Shown here piece after piece: positions 15,021-35,866 of a DNA stretch of 64,000 bases; the stretch's first letter is position 1; each line of letters opens with the position of its first letter. A model generated the notes under the pieces. It saw only the letters and a program-made list of their open reading frames with translations, was not told the origin of the DNA and searched no databases. Both the position numbers and the translations under genes were made by a program. Source of the DNA: a virus (Duplodnaviria > Heunggongvirae > Uroviricota > Caudoviricetes); the IMG/VR virus record IMGVR_UViG_2571042690_000019; one strand, given 5' to 3'.

Positions 15021-15033
15021 ATGTTAGAAAACT
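15021..15033. promoter_or_regulatory. C1-operator-like site
   Basis: atgttagaaaact (reverse complement AGTTTTCTAACAT) at the 3' end of the ref-like gene. Confidence 0.4.
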
Positions 15034-28139: not shown

Positions 28140-28174
28140 AAAGAAGCCCGCTCAACCAGGCGGGCTTCCTACTA

Positions 28175-29269
28175 TCACTCAATGATTTTTTCTGCTGTCA
28201 GCCAGCTAATTTCTTGCCTGTCTTTCGGCGGTTTTAGCATGTGGGCGTATTCAGCGACATTCTCCCACGAAATTGTTTTTGCCCACTCAACGATAGCATT
28301 GTGATCTGCAGTGAAGAGTGGAATGGTGTGCGATTTCAACCATTCTAATGTCGTGACGCCATGTTTTTTGGCGTGGTGCTGCGCATGATGCCGGGCTATC
28401 ACTCGTAATGGTATTGTCCATTCACTACCATCAGGCATCGAAAAGCGCATTGTCTTCGGCATATCTGATTCAAGAACAGCCTCCCTAATACCAGGGAACT
28501 CACCAAGAATCATACGACGATAGTCATCACTATTTCGCCCGCCATACCTTTCGGCAAAATGATCAAGATATTCTTGGGTAATAAATGGTGAATCCTCCGC
28601 ACTCAGCTTAATGGCTTTATATACACCACTCGGATTATCTTCAGCTAAAGCACGTCCATGATGTGAATCATAAAAAAAGCCTATTTCCTCTGGTGACGGA
28701 ATTGAAGTGAGCAATATGCGTGAATCACCACTAGTCATGCTTGCCCACACAATGCTGTATGCCTGATCGCTGATATGTGCGGAATCCACAATAATGAATA
28801 AAAGATGGTCGGCGTAGTGACCTGCAATGCTATCTTCATAGTTAAGGCGGAAGTTACAAAAGCACATTCCCCAAAATTCATTGAACATCAGACCGCTATC
28901 ACCGACCTTAAAATACTCAATGATAAAAGGTTGTTTTTTCAGCAATGCCTCCCAACATTGCCACACATATGCAACAATTCCTCTTTTGCAAACATTTGAT
29001 TTTGGATAAACAATTACTGTCCGGGAATCAGGATACATAATCGTATAAAGGGTACTAATAACAGCAAGCACTTGCGGTCGTCCGATCCCATACGGAGTGG
29101 TGACAGTAGCTTTTGCATTATTGGGCTGTATAGCTTCAACAATTTGTTGTTGCTGGTGGCTTAAATCAATATCAAACAATTCTTTTGCTGCCAGTACCCA
29201 ATTGTCTTTATATTTCTCCACCAGCGACAGCCAGCGCGGATCTTTATAAATATTGCTCTTAGTCGCCAT
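28175..29269 (-). CDS. terminase large-subunit (PacB) paralog with degenerate ATPase motifs
   Basis: Start moved to internal ATG (MATKSNIYKDPRW). Aligns with pacB at 34358..35866 but Walker A is PYGIGRP (vs GHGTGKS) and Walker B FIIVDSA (vs LILDEAS). Confidence 0.5.
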   Translation of the reverse strand: MATKSNIYKDPRWLSLVEKYKDNWVLAAKELFDIDLSHQQQQIVEAIQPNNAKATVTTPYGIGRPQVLAVISTLYTIMYPDSRTVIVYPKSNVCKRGIVAYVWQCWEALLKKQPFIIEYFKVGDSGLMFNEFWGMCFCNFRLNYEDSIAGHYADHLLFIIVDSAHISDQAYSIVWASMTSGDSRILLTSIPSPEEIGFFYDSHHGRALAEDNPSGVYKAIKLSAEDSPFITQEYLDHFAERYGGRNSDDYRRMILGEFPGIREAVLESDMPKTMRFSMPDGSEWTIPLRVIARHHAQHHAKKHGVTTLEWLKSHTIPLFTADHNAIVEWAKTISWENVAEYAHMLKPPKDRQEISWLTAEKIIE

Positions 29270-30026
29270 CTGCCACTTCCTTAACTTCTTCTTTGGCCTG
29301 TTCTGCAATCGCCGCACGGCATTTCGCCCTGGCTGTAGCGATTGCTTCAGCTCGCACATCGTCTGGAATCGTTGACGTGATATACATATCCAGTTCTTCG
29401 GCACGGAATACTGTTTGGTCCAGATATTCGCGTAGCATCCAGGTAAATTCGAAATCACACGCGATAATCTCTGCGCTACCTTCTGCACCATTTGGGAAAT
29501 GAATAAATGCCTGTTTAGCCAAACCGATAACACGACATGCGGTTGCCAAAACAGCGACAACCAGGTTTACATTTTCACACGCTACGGGCTGGTTAACGCC
29601 GGAGATTACTCCATTTAACTGTCGGTTATATGGAAGGTAGTTTGAGATGCGTTCTACGCGCCATGTGCCAGTCAGGCTGCCATTTTTAAATATAATTGGT
29701 GTAACGGATAGCCCAAGCTCGCGTATAAGTCGTTGCGCTATAGCAGGATCATTAAACAGGTCTAATGCTACACATTCGAAAGACTGCGCAAGGGCAAACA
29801 GTTCTTCCAGAGAGTAGTCTTTGCCCCTGGCGGTGATGTAACGACGAACGCCGCTGTCTGCATCACTCCATATAGCTACGCCATGCTCTTCATTCAGCTC
29901 TTCATTAAAGCCGAGATACGTCATGATAGTGCGTTCAATCGTGTCAAACGGCAGTGACATGTCGGCGTTAACAGCCACCAGCAGGCCATTACGCAAGCGG
30001 TATTGAATTGTTTTAGTGCTTTCCAT
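29259..30026 (-). CDS. hypothetical protein
   Basis: 255-aa ORF in the same minus-strand operon. Confidence 0.45.
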   Translation of the reverse strand: MESTKTIQYRLRNGLLVAVNADMSLPFDTIERTIMTYLGFNEELNEEHGVAIWSDADSGVRRYITARGKDYSLEELFALAQSFECVALDLFNDPAIAQRLIRELGLSVTPIIFKNGSLTGTWRVERISNYLPYNRQLNGVISGVNQPVACENVNLVVAVLATACRVIGLAKQAFIHFPNGAEGSAEIIACDFEFTWMLREYLDQTVFRAEELDMYITSTIPDDVRAEAIATARAKCRAAIAEQAKEEVKEVADGD

Positions 30027-30032
30027 GTCAAA

Positions 30033-30473
30033 TCACTCCACAACAAACCAGTCACAGGCCAGCAGGTCGCCAACTGAAGGCACCCACGGAACAACTACAC
30101 CTTGTGCATTTTTTAAGGCGAAATAAGCACCATACGGAACGAGGTCGCCGGGGAAATATCCCTTAATGGCTTCCATTCGTGCCGGGTACTGTCCTTCAGG
30201 AACCAGCCAGCAGAATTGGTTTTCGCCGTTCCACCCGCGTCGAGCAACTTTCTTGCCTTCCTTCAGCCACATCAGCGCGTCTGAAAAGTCGGCTGCTTCA
30301 AGGTCGATTTCTTCTTGCTGGGTGGTGATGCCACCAGCAGAAATAGTTACGCTCCCGGTAAGATTAATCATCACGCCGTTGTCATCCGTAATGATGACCG
30401 TGGTTCCATTTTTTTTGTGAGCTTTGTATTTGGGACGGAACTTAAAAAGCTCTTTCGTTGCCATGTTATTCAT
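30033..30473 (-). CDS. DUF2829-like (Tad2-like) protein with N-terminal extension
   Basis: 146 aa; DALMWLKEGKKVARRGWNGENQFCWLVPEG resembles the DUF2829 signature from memory; DUF2829 is the fold of the Thoeris anti-defense protein Tad2. Confidence 0.4.
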   Translation of the reverse strand: MNNMATKELFKFRPKYKAHKKNGTTVIITDDNGVMINLTGSVTISAGGITTQQEEIDLEAADFSDALMWLKEGKKVARRGWNGENQFCWLVPEGQYPARMEAIKGYFPGDLVPYGAYFALKNAQGVVVPWVPSVGDLLACDWFVVE

Positions 30474-30487
30474 AGTCTTTTCTCTGC

Positions 30488-30982
30488 TTATAACTTTTCG
30501 TACTGAAGCGGTGAACGCTTAATTTCAAAGTGGCCTTCCGATGTGCTACCAAAGCCACCAGCACCACGCTCCGTTTCGTTGAGTTCCTCAACCTCGACTA
30601 GTGAGACTTGTTCAACACGCTCAAAAATTCCTTGCATGACAGCCATTCCAGGCTTGAGACAAACGCCTTCCCCGCCTGGATCAGTAATCAGTTTTGCCAT
30701 GATTTCGCCGCGATAATCGGAGTCGATAATTCCTACGCAGTTAGCCAGGCGAGTATGTTTTTTGCAGCCCAATCCTGATCGCGGATAGAGTTTCAGACAC
30801 CAGCCGGGCGGGATCTCCATAGCCAGTCCGGTATACACCCACCAGCTTGAGGAAATTGCACCATTGCTATCGACGCATGGTTTTATTTCAACAGCCTCAA
30901 AATCCATCGCCGCCGATCCGGAGGTGGCATAAGCTGGAAGTTTTGCTGCCGGATGTAGGCGTTTCACTTTTACGTAAATCAT
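30488..30982 (-). CDS. dut: dUTP diphosphatase
   Basis: Trimeric dUTPase motifs: RSGLG, GIIDSDYRGE, RGAGGFGSTS. Confidence 0.8.
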   Translation of the reverse strand: MIYVKVKRLHPAAKLPAYATSGSAAMDFEAVEIKPCVDSNGAISSSWWVYTGLAMEIPPGWCLKLYPRSGLGCKKHTRLANCVGIIDSDYRGEIMAKLITDPGGEGVCLKPGMAVMQGIFERVEQVSLVEVEELNETERGAGGFGSTSEGHFEIKRSPLQYEKL

Positions 30983-31455
30983 TGTTTTTTAGCTCTCTGC
31001 GTGAAGGTGTAAACCCGACGTTTGATATGTGGAACGGTAGGAACAGGAAGACAGGAACTTTCAATAACTCCTTGCTCCTCCAGCGATCGCACCGCCCGCA
31101 AGAACTGCGACGTGTCGCCGCCAAACTGGCGGGCATAGGTGCTGCCGTTATGAAGTATTTGAGCTATTACCCGAGCTTTTGTCTGGCTGTCACGATATGC
31201 GAATAGCCGCACGGCCTCTTCTGGCGCAATCGCTAACTGATAGCCTTTCCCGGCACGGTGTCGAATGAATCCATGCGCCAGTAGGTTTTTGAGTTCGTTA
31301 CGAGTGCGAACAGATCCGTAACCCAGGAAGTGTGGATTGATAACGACTGGCTTAAACCATTCCGTAGGTGCTTTAGCTAATAGAGCTAACAGCTTCCCGG
31401 ATAATTCTGGATAGGAAGACGGGTAACAATTCAGAGATGGGTAATAAGTTTTCAC
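30979..31455 (-). CDS. hypothetical protein
   Basis: 158-aa ORF; start overlaps upstream stop. Confidence 0.4.
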   Translation of the reverse strand: MKTYYPSLNCYPSSYPELSGKLLALLAKAPTEWFKPVVINPHFLGYGSVRTRNELKNLLAHGFIRHRAGKGYQLAIAPEEAVRLFAYRDSQTKARVIAQILHNGSTYARQFGGDTSQFLRAVRSLEEQGVIESSCLPVPTVPHIKRRVYTFTQRAKKQ

Positions 31456-31796
31456 CGACGCCCCCTTGCAGGATATCGACCGGCATTAGTATCCGGTGCA
31501 ATAAAGCCGGTAGTGGGGCGAGTGAAAGCGAGATTAATCTTCTCGACCATAGTGCGATAATTTTCCTGATAGTGGGCCAGGAGTTTTTCGGCGGCAATGA
31601 TGGTTACTTTCCGGACGTAGCTTTCTGCTTCCTCCAGATTTCGCCAGTTTTTTTCGAGGGTAAACACAGGGACGGCCTCAAGCCCGGTCATGATGCCGAA
31701 CACAACGACAGCATGACTGTTCTTAACACCAGCGGCGAAGGTTACGGTGTAACCATCCACCTTGAAGCGTCTTGATTCCGTGATTTGACTCTGCAA
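31452..31796 (-). CDS. hypothetical protein (first gene after operator, downstream of cre)
   Basis: 114-aa ORF. Confidence 0.4.
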   Translation of the reverse strand: MQSQITESRRFKVDGYTVTFAAGVKNSHAVVVFGIMTGLEAVPVFTLEKNWRNLEEAESYVRKVTIIAAEKLLAHYQENYRTMVEKINLAFTRPTTGFIAPDTNAGRYPARGRR

Positions 31797-31850
31797 AGCA
31801 CCCTCCTAAATAGGCGAGGGTACTTTACAGCAAAGGCGTTAATCTAAAAA

Positions 31851-31870
31851 GATGTGTTAGAATTTTAATT
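31851..31870. promoter_or_regulatory. C1-operator-like site between cre and downstream operon
   Basis: gatgtgttagaattttaatt. Confidence 0.4.
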
Positions 31871-32898
31871 TACGAATCCATCAGGCGGCTATTAGCCCCC
31901 ACAGACACGCCGCCACGGCGAAGATACCGCATAAGTGTTTCCGGTTTCTTCCAGGTTCCTTCCTGCATGATCTCCACCATAGACACCTGCTTTTCAGCCA
32001 TATCAATAGCGGCCCCGACGCGTGCACTATGCCCAGTCCACGTCCGGTATCTTCCTTTGTTTGGCGTAGCATCTCTTTTATTCAGCAACACCCAGGCGTC
32101 GCTGAATATTTTCTCCATTGCAGGTGCAGTAAGGGGCGTTGTCGTAATCCTGGCCTTATTGCTACGGTGTATCGGCGGGAACAGCACCGCGTCAGGATGT
32201 TCACGAAGCCCGGAAACATCCAGCCAGTCATTCAGCACAGCAGTAGTGCGACGGGAAAGCACCTTATCAAGCCCGGCGGCGGTCGTTATTGTCTTCGTGT
32301 GTGAAATATGTAGCGTGACAGTGTCACCTGTTTGGTCCAGATCTCCTACACGAATACGCGAGATTTCCGACATACGCATCAGCGTATTGTATGCAACAAA
32401 GAGAAAAGCCCGGTTGCGCTGGTCCACCAGCCGTTCTGACCTGGACAGCAGGACGTCGAGCAGTTTCAGGTCGTCCCACCGCAACGGTATAGCCTGGCCT
32501 GTTCGCTCGCCTTTTTCCGTTGCCGCTTCACGCCGGATGCGCCGCATGGCCAGAGACACACTTTTATCGTCCGACAGCGGCGGGAGGCCACATTGCGAAA
32601 GCAGCATGTTAAGCATGGCATAGTGCTTATCAATGGTGGTCGAAGCCAGATCAGCATCATGCAGCTGAAGAAAATACTCGCGGGCCATCTCTGGTGAGAT
32701 CGGGAACCAGGCGAGCTGGCGAGCGTGACACCATCTCGCCCAGGAGTGAAACACTAACCGGAGATCGCGCAAAGTATTCGGCGCGTAAGCCCCCTGGTCA
32801 TTCATGAACCGCATAAAGTTTTCTGCGGCCTCCTGGTACTCTTTGCCAATGTTGCGCAGAAAACCACCGGAGCTGCCAGAGATAATTAATTTACTCAT
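31870..32898 (-). CDS. cre: Cre-like tyrosine recombinase
   Basis: 342 aa (P1 Cre is 343 from memory); aligns by eye along its length (WFPISPEMAREYF, AVSLAMRRIRRE, AYNTLMRMSEISRIRVGDL, GHSARVGAAIDMA, catalytic-Tyr region TLMRYLR). Confidence 0.8.
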   Translation of the reverse strand: MSKLIISGSSGGFLRNIGKEYQEAAENFMRFMNDQGAYAPNTLRDLRLVFHSWARWCHARQLAWFPISPEMAREYFLQLHDADLASTTIDKHYAMLNMLLSQCGLPPLSDDKSVSLAMRRIRREAATEKGERTGQAIPLRWDDLKLLDVLLSRSERLVDQRNRAFLFVAYNTLMRMSEISRIRVGDLDQTGDTVTLHISHTKTITTAAGLDKVLSRRTTAVLNDWLDVSGLREHPDAVLFPPIHRSNKARITTTPLTAPAMEKIFSDAWVLLNKRDATPNKGRYRTWTGHSARVGAAIDMAEKQVSMVEIMQEGTWKKPETLMRYLRRGGVSVGANSRLMDS

Positions 32899-33049
32899 GA
32901 AACTATTTAACCTCTATATACAGATGACGCTACGCGAAAAATATAAAAATGACAGGGTAGCTATAAGTTAATTTTCAAGATTCAAGCCTTTGATCCGAGG
33001 CACGTATTTTCAGTGATGTCAACACTGATCATCTACCCATGATTATAGC

Positions 33050-33083
33050 CTAACTTTAAATAATGCCAATTATTTAAAGTTAT
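33050..33083. other. lox-like recombination site (13-bp inverted arms, 8-bp asymmetric spacer)
   Basis: cTAACTTTAAATA-ATGCCAAT-TATTTAAAGTTAT; arms match at 12 of 13 positions; compare loxP ATAACTTCGTATA-GCATACAT-TATACGAAGTTAT; about 150 bp upstream of cre. Confidence 0.6.
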
Positions 33084-33292: not shown

Positions 33293-34330
33293 ATGAGTAA
33301 GAAGTCGATCGAGAAAGAGTACAAACGGTTCCTGCAAACCGCTGAACGGTGGAAAGAGCTGGTGGTCGCAAACTCTGTTTTCCATGATACCAGTTATGCT
33401 GGCGAGGAATTCCGCCATGTTGCATTAACGCATGACCAAAACATATTAGAAGAAGCTGAAAAATGTCTTGCTGAATGGAAAGCCTTCGTTGACATGTGCC
33501 GCGATGCCGACGGCAAAGCGTCGAACATTGTTGAGTCTGTATATTCTCCGATCCCATTCATCATTGAGGACACCAATCAAAGCACGCATGTCGTTGTGCA
33601 AAGCGCTACAACAACACGTACATTTACACGTGAACAATTGCTAAAAAAATACGACAAAATCATAAAGAAAAGCCTTAAAAATAGGGTTTTTTCTCAAATC
33701 GTAGGTGATCTTGAAGAAGAACAGCGCTTCTTTGAAGCTGAGCCTGAAGGCGAGATCTACCGGGCGCGTAAAGAGGCATATACAGATGTTGTGCTGACAA
33801 CAAACATCGAAGGCAGCAATGCCCTTTCTCGCTTTAGAGTTGGCGCACATGGTGCATTGGTTTTCGCAAGACTACCGAAGACAACGATCCCCGTTGTCAA
33901 TAATGTTGGTGAACGCCGGAGCATTACAATTTATTCTGGCGTCGAATCGGTACCTTGCAGCCTTCTCGGCGATTTTAACTTATATCGTGTTCGTGACCTG
34001 GAAAAACACCAGCCAAGCTATGTTGCGAAGTCGTACATCTTAAGGAACATCGATATTCGCAATGAAAGCCTTAAGCAGAAATCCGCTAAGATGCTGGAGG
34101 ATGCCGATCCGGCTATTCGCCATATCATTGAGCGTAAGATACGTACATCACGTGAAGCAATGGCAAGGCTGGATAAAATGGATCTGGAATTGTTAGACGT
34201 AATGATGGCCTCTGGAGACGACCTGACCGGCATTAAACTGAATGAAGCTCGTAAAAAATACGGCAAAGCAATCGAAGAACGTTACGGATACACATTCCCC
34301 CAAACGCAGTACGCCGCGAAGCTCTGGTAA
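33293..34330 (+). CDS. hypothetical protein; candidate primary repressor (C1-like) by position only
   Basis: 345-aa ORF with an operator in its own promoter, divergent from cre/lox and convergent with pacB, as c1 is in P1. No sequence-level recognition. Confidence 0.3.
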   Translation: MSKKSIEKEYKRFLQTAERWKELVVANSVFHDTSYAGEEFRHVALTHDQNILEEAEKCLAEWKAFVDMCRDADGKASNIVESVYSPIPFIIEDTNQSTHVVVQSATTTRTFTREQLLKKYDKIIKKSLKNRVFSQIVGDLEEEQRFFEAEPEGEIYRARKEAYTDVVLTTNIEGSNALSRFRVGAHGALVFARLPKTTIPVVNNVGERRSITIYSGVESVPCSLLGDFNLYRVRDLEKHQPSYVAKSYILRNIDIRNESLKQKSAKMLEDADPAIRHIIERKIRTSREAMARLDKMDLELLDVMMASGDDLTGIKLNEARKKYGKAIEERYGYTFPQTQYAAKLW

Positions 34331-34357: not shown

Positions 34358-35866
34358 TTATATATCCAGATCCGGCATTTCGATATCCGCCAGAACCTGA
34401 TCTCGGAAAGTTGCCATTTCGGCACCAATATCTTCATTAGCAGGCACATAGTCCACCAGCATAGTGAAGCAGTAGGTATCCCATCGGTCAGGCGATTTGA
34501 TGTTTAGCTTTTGCCGCATGTGCTCTTTGCGCATCATCGCCATTTTCCCTTCTTCATTCAGTAAAAAGGGGATTTTTGACGCTTGCTCTGCCGTTTTAGG
34601 GTCACTGTCTATCCGCATACGCCCTGACTTTATGGCATCACGCGCCATAATGTTTGCGTAGGCACGCTGATTAACAAATCGCTCCCTGTCTTTGTTCGCA
34701 AACATGGGTTTTCCCCACCGAATACGTACCGGGTTCGCACCACGACGCACCAACTGCGCACACGTATCAGAACCAAAACCATCAGCATCAACCGCGATTG
34801 TTATATTCGGGTATTTTTCCGGCGTACATTCGTTATATATGAAGTCAGCAAAGGCCAATGGGTCCATAGTGCCAGGCATCTCCATTACCTTAAAGTTAAC
34901 AACGCGCCGCTTATCCCTGTGACCTGATACCTTGCAGATGTTGAGGACCGACTTATCTCGCCCATTACCAACGTCAGCCGTTGCCACCCATCCCCAGTTT
35001 TTCTCCAACAACACCTTGCGGCGAGCAGAGCGATCGCATTCATCACGACCAAGCAAATAGCCGTTAATTTCTCGTGGGAACTGACCAAGCACCTTGACCA
35101 TGTACTCAATAGAATCGCGCCCACCATATTCCAGAAGCTTCTCCTTGATGAATTGTGGTGTGACGAACGGTGATTCTTCCGAGTTAAGAACAATTGCTGT
35201 CCAGATCCCTTTCGGGTTGTCTGGGGTTTTTGCTCGAGAATGGTGCGAATCGTAGAAATAACCACTTGGCCTTGTTGGCTGGGATAGCATCAACATCCGG
35301 TTATCTTCTTCAGTAAGAGCACCGGTCATTACGCCGATCGCCTTATCAGATATACCAGATGCTTCATCCAGAATTAGAAGCAAATGTGCCGCGTGTTCCC
35401 CCGCCAGCGCTTCTTCGTTGCCGAGTCGATAACCTTTGCAGAGAACTTCCCAAATCCCCTTACGGGAGCGCTCATAAAACATGGTGTCAGAGAGGACAAA
35501 ATAGGTCTGCAACCACCCATGACGCTTAACTGCATTCGCCCAATACTGTTTAACGTATTTGAATACGCCTGTTTTTACCTGGCCTATCTTGTTAGCAACA
35601 ATGATGACACGGGCATCGGGGAACAGGATCATAAAAATCAACAGCAACATCGCGGTAAGGGACGACTTCCCCGTTCCGTGTCCGGACGTGACGGTCGTCC
35701 TACTCCCCGTTTCCTGCACTGACTGAATGATCTGCTGCTGCTGGTGGGAGGGGAACATCCCAAAAATATCGACTACAGCCTGGGTAAAGTTGTAGCGGTA
35801 TTTGATTACCATATCGCGCCAGCGTGGATCGCTGGTGACGCATTTAATCTTGCGCCCGCCAGCCAT
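34358..35866 (-). CDS. pacB: terminase large subunit
   Basis: 502 aa; Walker A GHGTGKSSL, Walker B LILDEASG; directly downstream of pacA. Confidence 0.7.
   Translation of the reverse strand: MAGGRKIKCVTSDPRWRDMVIKYRYNFTQAVVDIFGMFPSHQQQQIIQSVQETGSRTTVTSGHGTGKSSLTAMLLLIFMILFPDARVIIVANKIGQVKTGVFKYVKQYWANAVKRHGWLQTYFVLSDTMFYERSRKGIWEVLCKGYRLGNEEALAGEHAAHLLLILDEASGISDKAIGVMTGALTEEDNRMLMLSQPTRPSGYFYDSHHSRAKTPDNPKGIWTAIVLNSEESPFVTPQFIKEKLLEYGGRDSIEYMVKVLGQFPREINGYLLGRDECDRSARRKVLLEKNWGWVATADVGNGRDKSVLNICKVSGHRDKRRVVNFKVMEMPGTMDPLAFADFIYNECTPEKYPNITIAVDADGFGSDTCAQLVRRGANPVRIRWGKPMFANKDRERFVNQRAYANIMARDAIKSGRMRIDSDPKTAEQASKIPFLLNEEGKMAMMRKEHMRQKLNIKSPDRWDTYCFTMLVDYVPANEDIGAEMATFRDQVLADIEMPDLDI

Follow-up and report, generated by a model that had tools for sequence, protein, structure and literature searches.

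A predicted pseudoenzyme related to the packaging ATPase PacB in an operator-headed accessory operon of a D6-like phage-plasmid

What can a second terminase-like gene do in a phage that already encodes its own terminase? The question is raised by a gene at positions 28175-29269 of the window, as we call the whole 64,000-nucleotide stretch analyzed here, which comes from the viral record IMGVR_UViG_2571042690_000019 of IMG/VR (Caudoviricetes). The entire window is 99.9% identical to E. coli plasmids of ∼90 kb, e.g. NZ_AP027688, and its region 29286-31870 is 98% identical to Escherichia phage D6; on these identities, the source element is a D6-like member of the P1 family of phage-plasmids from E. 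coli. The terminase large subunit of this element is PacB, and the gene in question encodes a PacB paralog which, judged from sequence comparison and a structure prediction, is a pseudoenzyme that keeps the terminase ATPase fold. The paralog, its two parts and the PacB gene used as the reference are as follows.

28175-29269, minus strand: PacB paralog, 364 amino acids (aa) from the ATG; 37% identity to PacB over 258 aa, E 7e-57 (BLASTP)
28484-29269, minus strand: residues 1-262 of the paralog, a terminase ATPase-like domain predicted to be catalytically dead from the PacB alignment, the fold and the loss of motifs; ratio of nonsynonymous to synonymous substitution rates (dN/dS) 0.17-0.27
28175-28483, minus strand: domain X, residues 263-364 of the paralog, ∼100 aa, standing in place of the nuclease domain; 245 cluster representatives at E<=1e-3
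34358-35866, minus strand: resident PacB, terminase large subunit; PF03237 at 0.0014, annotated as terminase in related plasmids

A terminase fold without its catalytic motifs

The original prediction, made from the DNA letters and their translations, was that the gene aligns with the terminase large subunit through the ATPase domain, and the BLASTP match listed above bears this out. The alignment stops at paralog residue 259, and there is no RNase H-like nuclease domain. At the Walker A position the paralog has TTPYGIGRP, while PacB has SGHGTGKS (PYGIGRP vs GHGTGKS); at the Walker B position it has LLFIIVDSA as opposed to LLLILDEAS. The defects that had been read as PYGIGRP and FIIVDSA are thus seen in the alignment as well, and they recur in every allele examined. 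Across all lineages examined, R, Q, H, E, C or T stands where Walker A should have its lysine, and V, T, A, M, I or P where Walker B should have its aspartate; the Walker B equivalents in other alleles are IIVTEA, FIVINS and FICPNA. Shifting the alignment by one residue at Walker B does not restore both acidic residues. The paralog cannot work as a terminase: none of the alleles examined has kept the lysine of Walker A, the aspartate of Walker B or any of the nuclease domain.

The fold, by contrast, seems to be retained. An AlphaFold2 model built with a 47-sequence alignment has the predicted local distance difference test score (pLDDT) above 90 for residues 1-260 of the paralog, and the P-loop position is predicted to form a beta-strand, a loop and a helix. 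The top Foldseek matches in both PDB and BFVD are terminase ATPase domains, with E-values from 6e-8 to 1e-13, the best being those of P74-26, Sf6, T4 gp17 and the Avs3-bound PhiV-1 terminase. Of the five features that define a terminase, the paralog retains the ASCE ATPase fold and lacks the other four, namely Walker A, Walker B, the nuclease and the location in a packaging operon. Therefore, it must not be annotated as a terminase, although it bears the name “terminase large subunit” in MH422554 and in a metagenomic record.

The likeness to PacB extends across the whole ATPase domain and includes the same predicted fold, but it is uneven. Identity between the paralogs and PacB is highest, 45-57%, in the N-terminal helices (DPRW..KY..W.LA) and in the GFFYDSHH...NP.G segment, and is 17-37% elsewhere. 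In other respects the two proteins differ. PacB is a core protein, 98% conserved and encoded in the packaging operon, whereas the paralog is accessory and hypervariable, carries domain X instead of the nuclease, and belongs to what is probably an early, operator-headed operon. Its gene adjoins isaA and lies ∼6 kb from the packaging genes pacA-pacB, hence not beside pacA, the gene for the small subunit. We also asked whether a less basic charge could mark the loss of DNA binding: the D6-type alleles have isoelectric points (pI) of 5.7-6.3, as compared to ∼9 in PacB, but the P0007, P1-type and Citrobacter alleles do not follow this pattern, and the criterion was not used.

The ATG at 29269 is favored as the start of the paralog by the Shine-Dalgarno (SD) sequence AAGGAAG, which lies within the last codons of isaA, and by the alignment with the PacB N-terminus; the overlap with the isaA stop is 11 nt. 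The open frame itself reaches an upstream TTG at 29560 (28175-29560, minus strand, 461 aa), overlapping isaA in another frame, and an upstream start of the paralog frame has been chosen in one metagenomic record (P0002, 438 aa, named “Terminase large subunit”). The first protein search, with its word-seeded candidate step, matched the paralog family and not PacB; PacB relatives were recovered with an alignment as the query.

Coupling to isaA, domain X and cassette exchange

Three features of the paralog were absent from the original prediction: the isaA gene coupled to it, domain X at its C-terminus and a cassette-like variability of the ATPase-like domain. The coordinates needed here, in addition to those given above, are the following.

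29259-30026, minus strand: IsaA homolog, 255 aa, acidic (pI 4.7); 48% identity to P1 IsaA over 258 aa, E 3e-89
28487-29286, no strand assigned: variable cassette with sharp edges, ∼60% nucleotide identity to the relative L003, flanks 97-100% identical (sliding identity, blastn)

P1-type phages and plasmids (MH422554, MH445380, vB_EcoM-813R1 and many PLSDB records) carry a 51%-identical paralog after isaA, between ssb and hxr, and the stop and start codons of their isaA-paralog pairs overlap, as in the window. By its gene arrangement, then, IsaA and the paralog form a two-gene, translationally coupled module that is found in two genomic contexts. In both of them the module lies downstream of a C1 operator, given the operator-like site after the recombinase gene dre here and Ossb ahead of ssb-isaA in P1. 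The IsaA fold is weakly nuclease-like, and IsaA is widespread without the paralog. We tested whether IsaA is a hidden piece of PacA or PacB, and BLASTP against both proteins gave no matches. Similarly, P1 IsaB is not a remnant of the paralog: there is no similarity between them, and P1 has IS1 and the unrelated isaB where its relatives hold the paralog.

Domain X is, elsewhere, a small stand-alone early phage protein. Its homologs among the 245 cluster representatives are mostly stand-alone proteins of ∼100 aa that are typically acidic (median pI 4.6), while the copy in the window is near neutral. A profile search of PDB gave no significant match for the domain, and a Pfam scan of 60 homologs yielded scattered fusions only, with DUF1351 in two proteins and Lar in one. 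Stand-alone copies lie directly after a dnaB/ban helicase gene in other P1-like elements, namely Cronobacter phage JK004 (locus L009, 2360-4297) and Salmonella plasmids (H133, NZ_CP146848). In Xanthomonas phages, domain X closes a 470-aa protein that matches DUF1351 weakly and below the threshold and is encoded beside recombinase, exonuclease and ssb genes.

Two further lineages combine these parts differently. A P1-like plasmid of Citrobacter freundii (NZ_CP114569.1, locus L016, 4309-5765) encodes a 263-aa PacB-like protein, also dead by its motifs (PSGIGCK and FFICPNA), which consists of the N-domain only and lacks domain X. Its gene lies between ref and mat and is translationally coupled to ref, the gene for the RecA-dependent nuclease Ref. 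In a contig of another assembly (locus L015, 6001-8384), domain X comes first and is followed by a PacB-like domain with Walker A GSGTGTT; the reading frame ends prematurely at a Tn3-family transposase gene, and genes for a Ref-type nuclease and AbiH are found nearby. That domain X and the PacB-like domain have been fused in both orders argues for their joint action.

The full-length paralog is present in 163 of the 760 PLSDB plasmids with a PacB-like match, i.e. in about one fifth. Among 5,426 complete E. coli genomes, 36 carry the cassette allele of the window and 83 carry the D6-type isaA, each at no less than 95% identity. Phage D6 lacks the paralog and has pdcA at its position; P1, with IS1 and isaB after isaA, lacks it as well. 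Thus, the paralog is dispensable for phage growth. All recovered full-length alleles are intact open reading frames (ORFs) of 364-368 aa, in addition to which there are shorter clusters (P0003, 263 aa; P0007, 266 aa; P0203, 166 aa). In the ATPase-like domain, the alleles share 45-53% identity among themselves and 34-40% with PacB. The dN/dS ratio is 0.27 in comparison with the L003 allele and 0.17-0.18 in comparison with P1-type alleles, with dS saturated; as far as such ratios can tell, the paralog is kept under purifying selection and is not debris.

The variable cassette coincides exactly with the ATPase-like domain, and the identity between the window and L003 returns to 97% in domain X. 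Between the same two genomes, pacA, pacB, c1, dre, orf117, orf116 and dut are 98.3% identical, and isaA and phd-doc are 97-100% identical. The match to D6 ends at 29286, the same point as the edge of the cassette. The P1-type pair L005/L006 has the reversed pattern, with the N-domain 99% and domain X 87% identical, and so the domain boundary is a recombination point. On these sequence comparisons, genomes that are otherwise nearly identical swap the ATPase-like domain as a divergent cassette, and the allele of the paralog shows no covariation with the PacA/PacB of the same element.

The operon, its operator and its cargo

The original prediction placed the gene in a three-gene, operator-controlled operon downstream of cre. 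An operator-headed operon does follow a recombinase gene, but the recombinase is Dre, and the operon comprises six genes: the IsaA homolog and two leading ORFs had been missed. The genes and sites from the repressor gene to the end of the operon, and the further copies of the operator-like motif, are listed here.

33293-34330: C1-type repressor homolog, 345 aa, upstream of dre; PF27008 in relatives
33051-33082, no strand assigned: rox site TAACTTTAAATAATTGGCATTATTTAAAGTTA, 32 bp, found by sequence match; annotated in D6 as “rox site (lox in P1)”
31870-32898, minus strand: Dre tyrosine recombinase; PF00589, 98% DNA identity to the D6 dre region
31855-31871, minus strand: 17-bp C1-type operator-like site AAATTAAAATTCTAACA, overlapping the dre stop codon (31870-31872)
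31841-31868, minus strand: candidate weak sigma-70 promoter, TTAAAA, 16-nt spacer, TAGATT; read by eye, 8 of 12 positions, below the scan threshold
31452-31796, minus strand: orf117, 114 aa, TTG start, SD AGGAGGG; phrog_1968 at 4e-48, positional counterpart of P1 c8
30979-31455, minus strand: orf116, 158 aa, basic (pI 10); phrog_6669 at 2e-97, overlaps orf117 by 4 nt
30488-30982, minus strand: predicted trimeric-type dUTPase (dut), 164 aa; PF00692 at 1.7e-14 (54 bits, cut-off 22), phrog_135 at 5e-62
30033-30473, minus strand: Tad2-like (DUF2829) protein, 146 aa, Tad2 domain at residues 62-145; PF11195, 81.6 bits (cut-off 25), E 5.9e-23
28146-28161, minus strand: weak terminator-like hairpin after the paralog stop, convergent with phd-doc; 5-bp stem and T-rich tail, a consensus match only
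3520, 15022, 15672, 20925, 31855, 33265, 42284, 43533, 54478 and 55685: ten copies of an asymmetric 17-bp motif, AWWTTRNWWTTCTAACA

Both components of the Dre/rox system of phage D6 are present in the window, the recombinase at 98% DNA identity and the 32-bp rox site. A near-consensus promoter (TTGGCA, 16-nt spacer, TATAAT; 33042-33069, minus strand) overlaps rox. The packaging genes pacA-pacB are located upstream of dre, beyond the C1-type repressor gene. The six minus-strand genes after dre are, in order, orf117, orf116, dut, tad2-like, isaA and the PacB paralog; at three of the junctions the genes overlap, by 4, 4 and 11 nt, and at the others they are 6-14 nt apart. In NZ_OY754373.1, an otherwise 99.9% identical plasmid, ISEc62, an insertion sequence of the IS21 family (istA/istB), is inserted within the operon.

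The P1 operator consensus ATTGCTCTAATAAATTT has no matches in the window at up to three mismatches, and for this reason the operator pattern was derived de novo. For AWWTTRNWWTTCTAACA, the window contains 10 sites vs 0.04 expected, and for the operator core TTTTCTAACA, 18 vs 5.25. The test is partly circular, as AWWTTRNWWTTCTAACA was derived from the window itself; still, the excess is far beyond chance. The site at the dre stop is conserved in D6 and in the relatives L002-L004 and L014, and so the operator-like site that had been noticed at the start of the operon next to the recombinase withstands both the count and the comparison. The ten copies of the motif probably serve as the operators of the D6-type C1 repressor, and their sequence is distinct from the consensus of the P1/P7 operators; those at 15022 (minus strand) and 15672 (plus strand) and the pair 42284/43533 may mark further early units. 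The site at the head of the operon covers the -35 hexamer and the spacer of the promoter candidate. The scan found no terminator-like site between dre and orf117, and thus transcription could also run on from dre.

In P1, C1 acts through the operators Oref and Omat on the genes that follow cre, and the ssb-isaA unit is under Ossb. These early C1 units (cre-c8-[Oref]-ref-[Omat]-mat and [Ossb]-ssb-isaA) resemble the operon in the window in the position after the recombinase gene, in the asymmetric 17-bp operator heading early accessory genes, and in having the IsaA gene family in common. They differ in the operator, AAATTAnnTTTCTAACA in the window vs ATTGCTCTAATAAATTT in P1, and in the cargo, which is ref and mat in P1 and dut, tad2-like, isaA and the paralog in the window. 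By this analogy, we infer C1 binding and early expression, i.e. an early accessory operon headed by a C1 operator.

The two leading genes, orf117 and orf116, are kept in all relatives, the former directly after dre and the latter second. Neither they nor IsaA or the paralog have a Pfam match. The similarity of orf117 to P1 C8 (24% identity over 85 aa, pairwise E 0.06) is not significant, and orf116 has no similarity to P1 Ref. Two winged-helix-like segments were seen by eye in orf116, which may be a DNA-binding regulator.

The assignment of the next protein to DUF2829 held in the profile search, well above the gathering score, and by sequence it is a member of the Tad2 family, whose proteins are homotetrameric sponges with pockets for the nucleotide signals of Thoeris, Pycsar and CBASS. 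Its PDB matches are ModTad2 (9eib, 8e-21), Tad2 (8v3e, 1e-20), HgmTad2/AcrIIA7 (8kbi), SPO1 Tad2 (8sme) and 8wjd, with 46% identity to ModTad2 across the whole domain; there is no similarity to P1 IsaA. It differs from the family in its N-terminal 60 aa, which had been called unusual. In the alignment with the 212-233-aa forms of relatives they are the remnant of a larger, ∼140-aa region after an internal deletion of ∼80 aa, and N-terminally extended DUF2829 proteins are in fact common (PHROG families of 172-262 aa; AcrIIA7 9kzr). The short form of 146 aa is also found in D6; long forms, with an extra N-terminal segment of ∼80 aa, are encoded in L003 (6500-7201), L012 (3881-4519) and L014 (4332-4994).

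ModTad2 sequesters His-ADPR (a histidine conjugate of ADP-ribose, ADPR) of type II Thoeris, and also the cyclic mononucleotides cUMP and cCMP (10.1101/2024.01.03.573942; PMC12393519). The loop after beta2, which forms a pocket in ModTad2 (10.1101/2024.01.03.573942), differs between the relatives of the window. Ligands across the family include 3'cADPR (a cyclic form of ADPR), His-ADPR, N7-cADPR, cUMP/cCMP or cyclic dinucleotides, and 19 of 84 tested sponge homologs (Acb2, Tad1 and Tad2 pooled), or about a quarter, inhibited none of seven systems (PMC12393519). The sponge role of the protein in the window is predicted from its family.

The dUTPase was likewise recognized correctly, since in addition to the PF00692 and phrog_135 matches its translation has the motifs PRSG, GIIDSDYRGE and RGAGGFGST; the activity is predicted from these. 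In the Enterobacter hormaechei relatives L012/L013 (2711-5004), the dut slot holds a gene for a 385-aa N6/N4 DNA methyltransferase, and the Tad2-like gene is separated from isaA by an extra 169-aa ORF for which Pfam gave no match. In a Raoultella relative (L011, 5997-10744), isaA is followed by genes for an ArsR-type regulator, a flavin mononucleotide reductase and a sigma-70-family factor similar to extracytoplasmic-function ones, and then by arsD, arsA and arsC; in this relative, metal-resistance cargo takes the place that the paralog has in the window. Judging by such replacements, the tail of the operon is a variable cargo region. With the methyltransferase in the dut slot of relatives, the variation of the Tad2-like gene and the presence or absence of the paralog, the neighborhood behaves like an accessory island of the counter-defense type.

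Possible roles of the paralog

The ATPase domain of the terminase alone triggers EcAvs2 and Upx, and in recognition by Avs2 and Avs3, contacts are made to the ATP that the terminase binds and to residues of its active site (PMC13601566). The IsaA-paralog module may be a counter-defense device aimed at a terminase-recognizing host or rival factor of the Avs2 or Upx kind, a reading that we favor tentatively and with clearly less than even confidence; a decoy or counter-defense role of the paralog, as originally suggested, is plausible. The paralog would act by binding, neither hydrolyzing ATP nor moving DNA. A mimic of the terminase domain, made early together with IsaA, would occupy the protein that otherwise meets the real PacB late in infection, and the lost ATP site could let it bind the sensor without the ATP-dependent contacts that trigger the latter. 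The same island would supply a Tad2-type sponge for nucleotide signals and, in relatives, what looks like an orphan methyltransferase.

In a bolder version, to which we give a rather slim chance, the dead PacB-like proteins of the P1 supergroup would be the first terminase mimics that disarm terminase sensing, be it by Avs1-3, Upx or another sensor. The domain devoid of the ATP site would fill the terminase pocket of the sensor and offer no ATP-dependent contacts for oligomerization, domain X and IsaA would stabilize or extend the block, and the divergent recombining alleles of the cassette would record an arms race with diverse host sensors.

Our searches for literature on terminase paralogs, decoy or inactive terminases, and isaA yielded no paper describing the paralog. 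To this extent the original statement that such a paralog has not been described holds, but the family is already in databases as the hypothetical phrog_5902 and, in the single case of MH422554, under the terminase name, and a comparable protein, T4 vs.8, has been described (PMC13601566). This nearest described case is a terminase ATPase-domain paralog that binds and activates EcAvs2, and its authors suggest an anti-defense role (PMC13601566). Like the paralog studied here, vs.8 is an extra phage-encoded terminase ATPase domain without the nuclease domain, found in one phage lineage; unlike it, vs.8 keeps Walker A and B and has been modeled with a bridging ATP in the Avs2 pocket (PMC13601566). 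Compared by description, the P1-family paralog has lost both Walker motifs, has gained domain X, and descends from PacB rather than from gp17.

Several observations weigh against a counter-defense role. A decoy for sensors of the Avs2/Avs3 type is mechanistically awkward, since these sensors read ATP and active-site residues that the paralog lacks; lacking the ATP site, the paralog may escape Avs2 and Avs3 altogether, and then it could not compete with PacB. Upx, on the other hand, is reportedly activated irrespective of catalytic residues, and a mimic might trigger it rather than block it. The N-domain of the paralog is acidic in some alleles only, so that DNA binding need not have been lost. 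The operator has been defined from the window alone, and C1 binding and early expression rest on the analogy with P1. Finally, several genomic contexts favor replication or recombination: the paralog lies next to ssb or is coupled to ref, and domain X follows dnaB or stands beside recT/exo modules.

Terminase-directed interference by binding of the small subunit is known from pathogenicity islands, whose proteins Ppi and Rpp act in this way. Similarly, the dead domain could keep the PacB surfaces for PacA or the portal, and either poison the motors of related P1-family elements, co-resident or superinfecting, or delay the cleavage of its own pac site. We consider such interference with packaging, or its control, unlikely, though not negligibly so. 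The best conservation with PacB in the N-terminal helices and the FYDSHH segment does suggest a common partner, and the allelic diversity would fit targeting of diverse rivals. Ppi and Rpp act, as the paralog would, by non-enzymatic binding of a terminase component, but they are not terminase homologs and are carried by satellites. Moreover, PacA and PacB are 98% identical between genomes whose cassettes are only ∼60% identical, with no covariation; the absence of the paralog from viable P1 and D6 means that it is not a core regulator of packaging; an early operon under a C1-type operator would be expressed neither in the lysogen, where exclusion is needed, nor together with the late packaging genes; and a poison subunit would hit the motor of its own element, too.

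Some reading outside those listed here is also unlikely. A role in early DNA metabolism is rather unlikely in our judgment: the dead domain, domain X and IsaA would be an accessory that binds SSB, DnaB, RecA/Ref or RecBCD in replication, recombination or end protection. It would account for the place of the module after ssb in P1-type plasmids, for the coupling of the Citrobacter N-domain-only paralog to ref, which also adjoins the permuted gene with domain X first, and for domain X after dnaB (JK004, Salmonella plasmids), by the recombinase, exonuclease and ssb genes of Xanthomonas phages and, in two other homologs, together with DUF1351. However, all these neighborhoods lie in early regions, where many genes are unrelated to each other, no fold or partner has been recognized for domain X, which is acidic, and presence/absence polymorphism along with cassette hypervariability would be unusual for a replication accessory. 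In the D6-type elements, the neighbors are the Tad2-like gene and dut and not recombination genes.

The variable regions of the P1 family hold defense cargo such as res-mod (PMC9603915), and the pair of isaA and the paralog, being a tightly coupled two-gene module, could be a plasmid-borne defense against other phages, with the terminase-like domain as the bait or sensor for the small terminase or portal of the invader and IsaA as the effector. This is improbable, as IsaA is widespread without the paralog, the C1-type operator heading the operon would be expected to keep it silent in the lysogen, and PADLOC gave no credible match for five proteins of uncharacterized type, including IsaA and the paralog. 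Least of all is the gene a functionless remnant of a duplicated or recombined pacB, which the lost catalytic motifs and nuclease domain and the many relatives without the gene could suggest, but which its intact frames of 364-368 aa in alleles only 45-53% identical in the ATPase-like domain, the dN/dS of 0.17-0.27, the conserved SD sequence and isaA coupling, the confidently predicted fold, and the independent fusions of both domains in either order make highly improbable.

The long-known and unexplained variable region “isaA-IS1-isaB” of P1-like plasmids can now be assigned content, namely, the module of isaA and the paralog present in many relatives. If the paralog merely tunes packaging or recombination, this is a useful annotation of modest interest; the interest would be much greater if the paralog indeed disarms terminase sensors. 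Among conserved phage proteins, none is read more often by the pattern-recognition immunity of bacteria (Avs1-3, Upx) than the terminase large subunit, and extra phage-encoded copies of its ATPase domain have been noticed only recently, in T4 vs.8. The paralog family would be a second and clearer case, with catalysis lost in every lineage examined, and a protein that is selected, fused to a widespread early-phage domain and swapped as a cassette. As the elements are tractable in E. coli and a Tad2-type sponge is encoded next to the module, the role of terminase mimics in the P1 family is directly testable.

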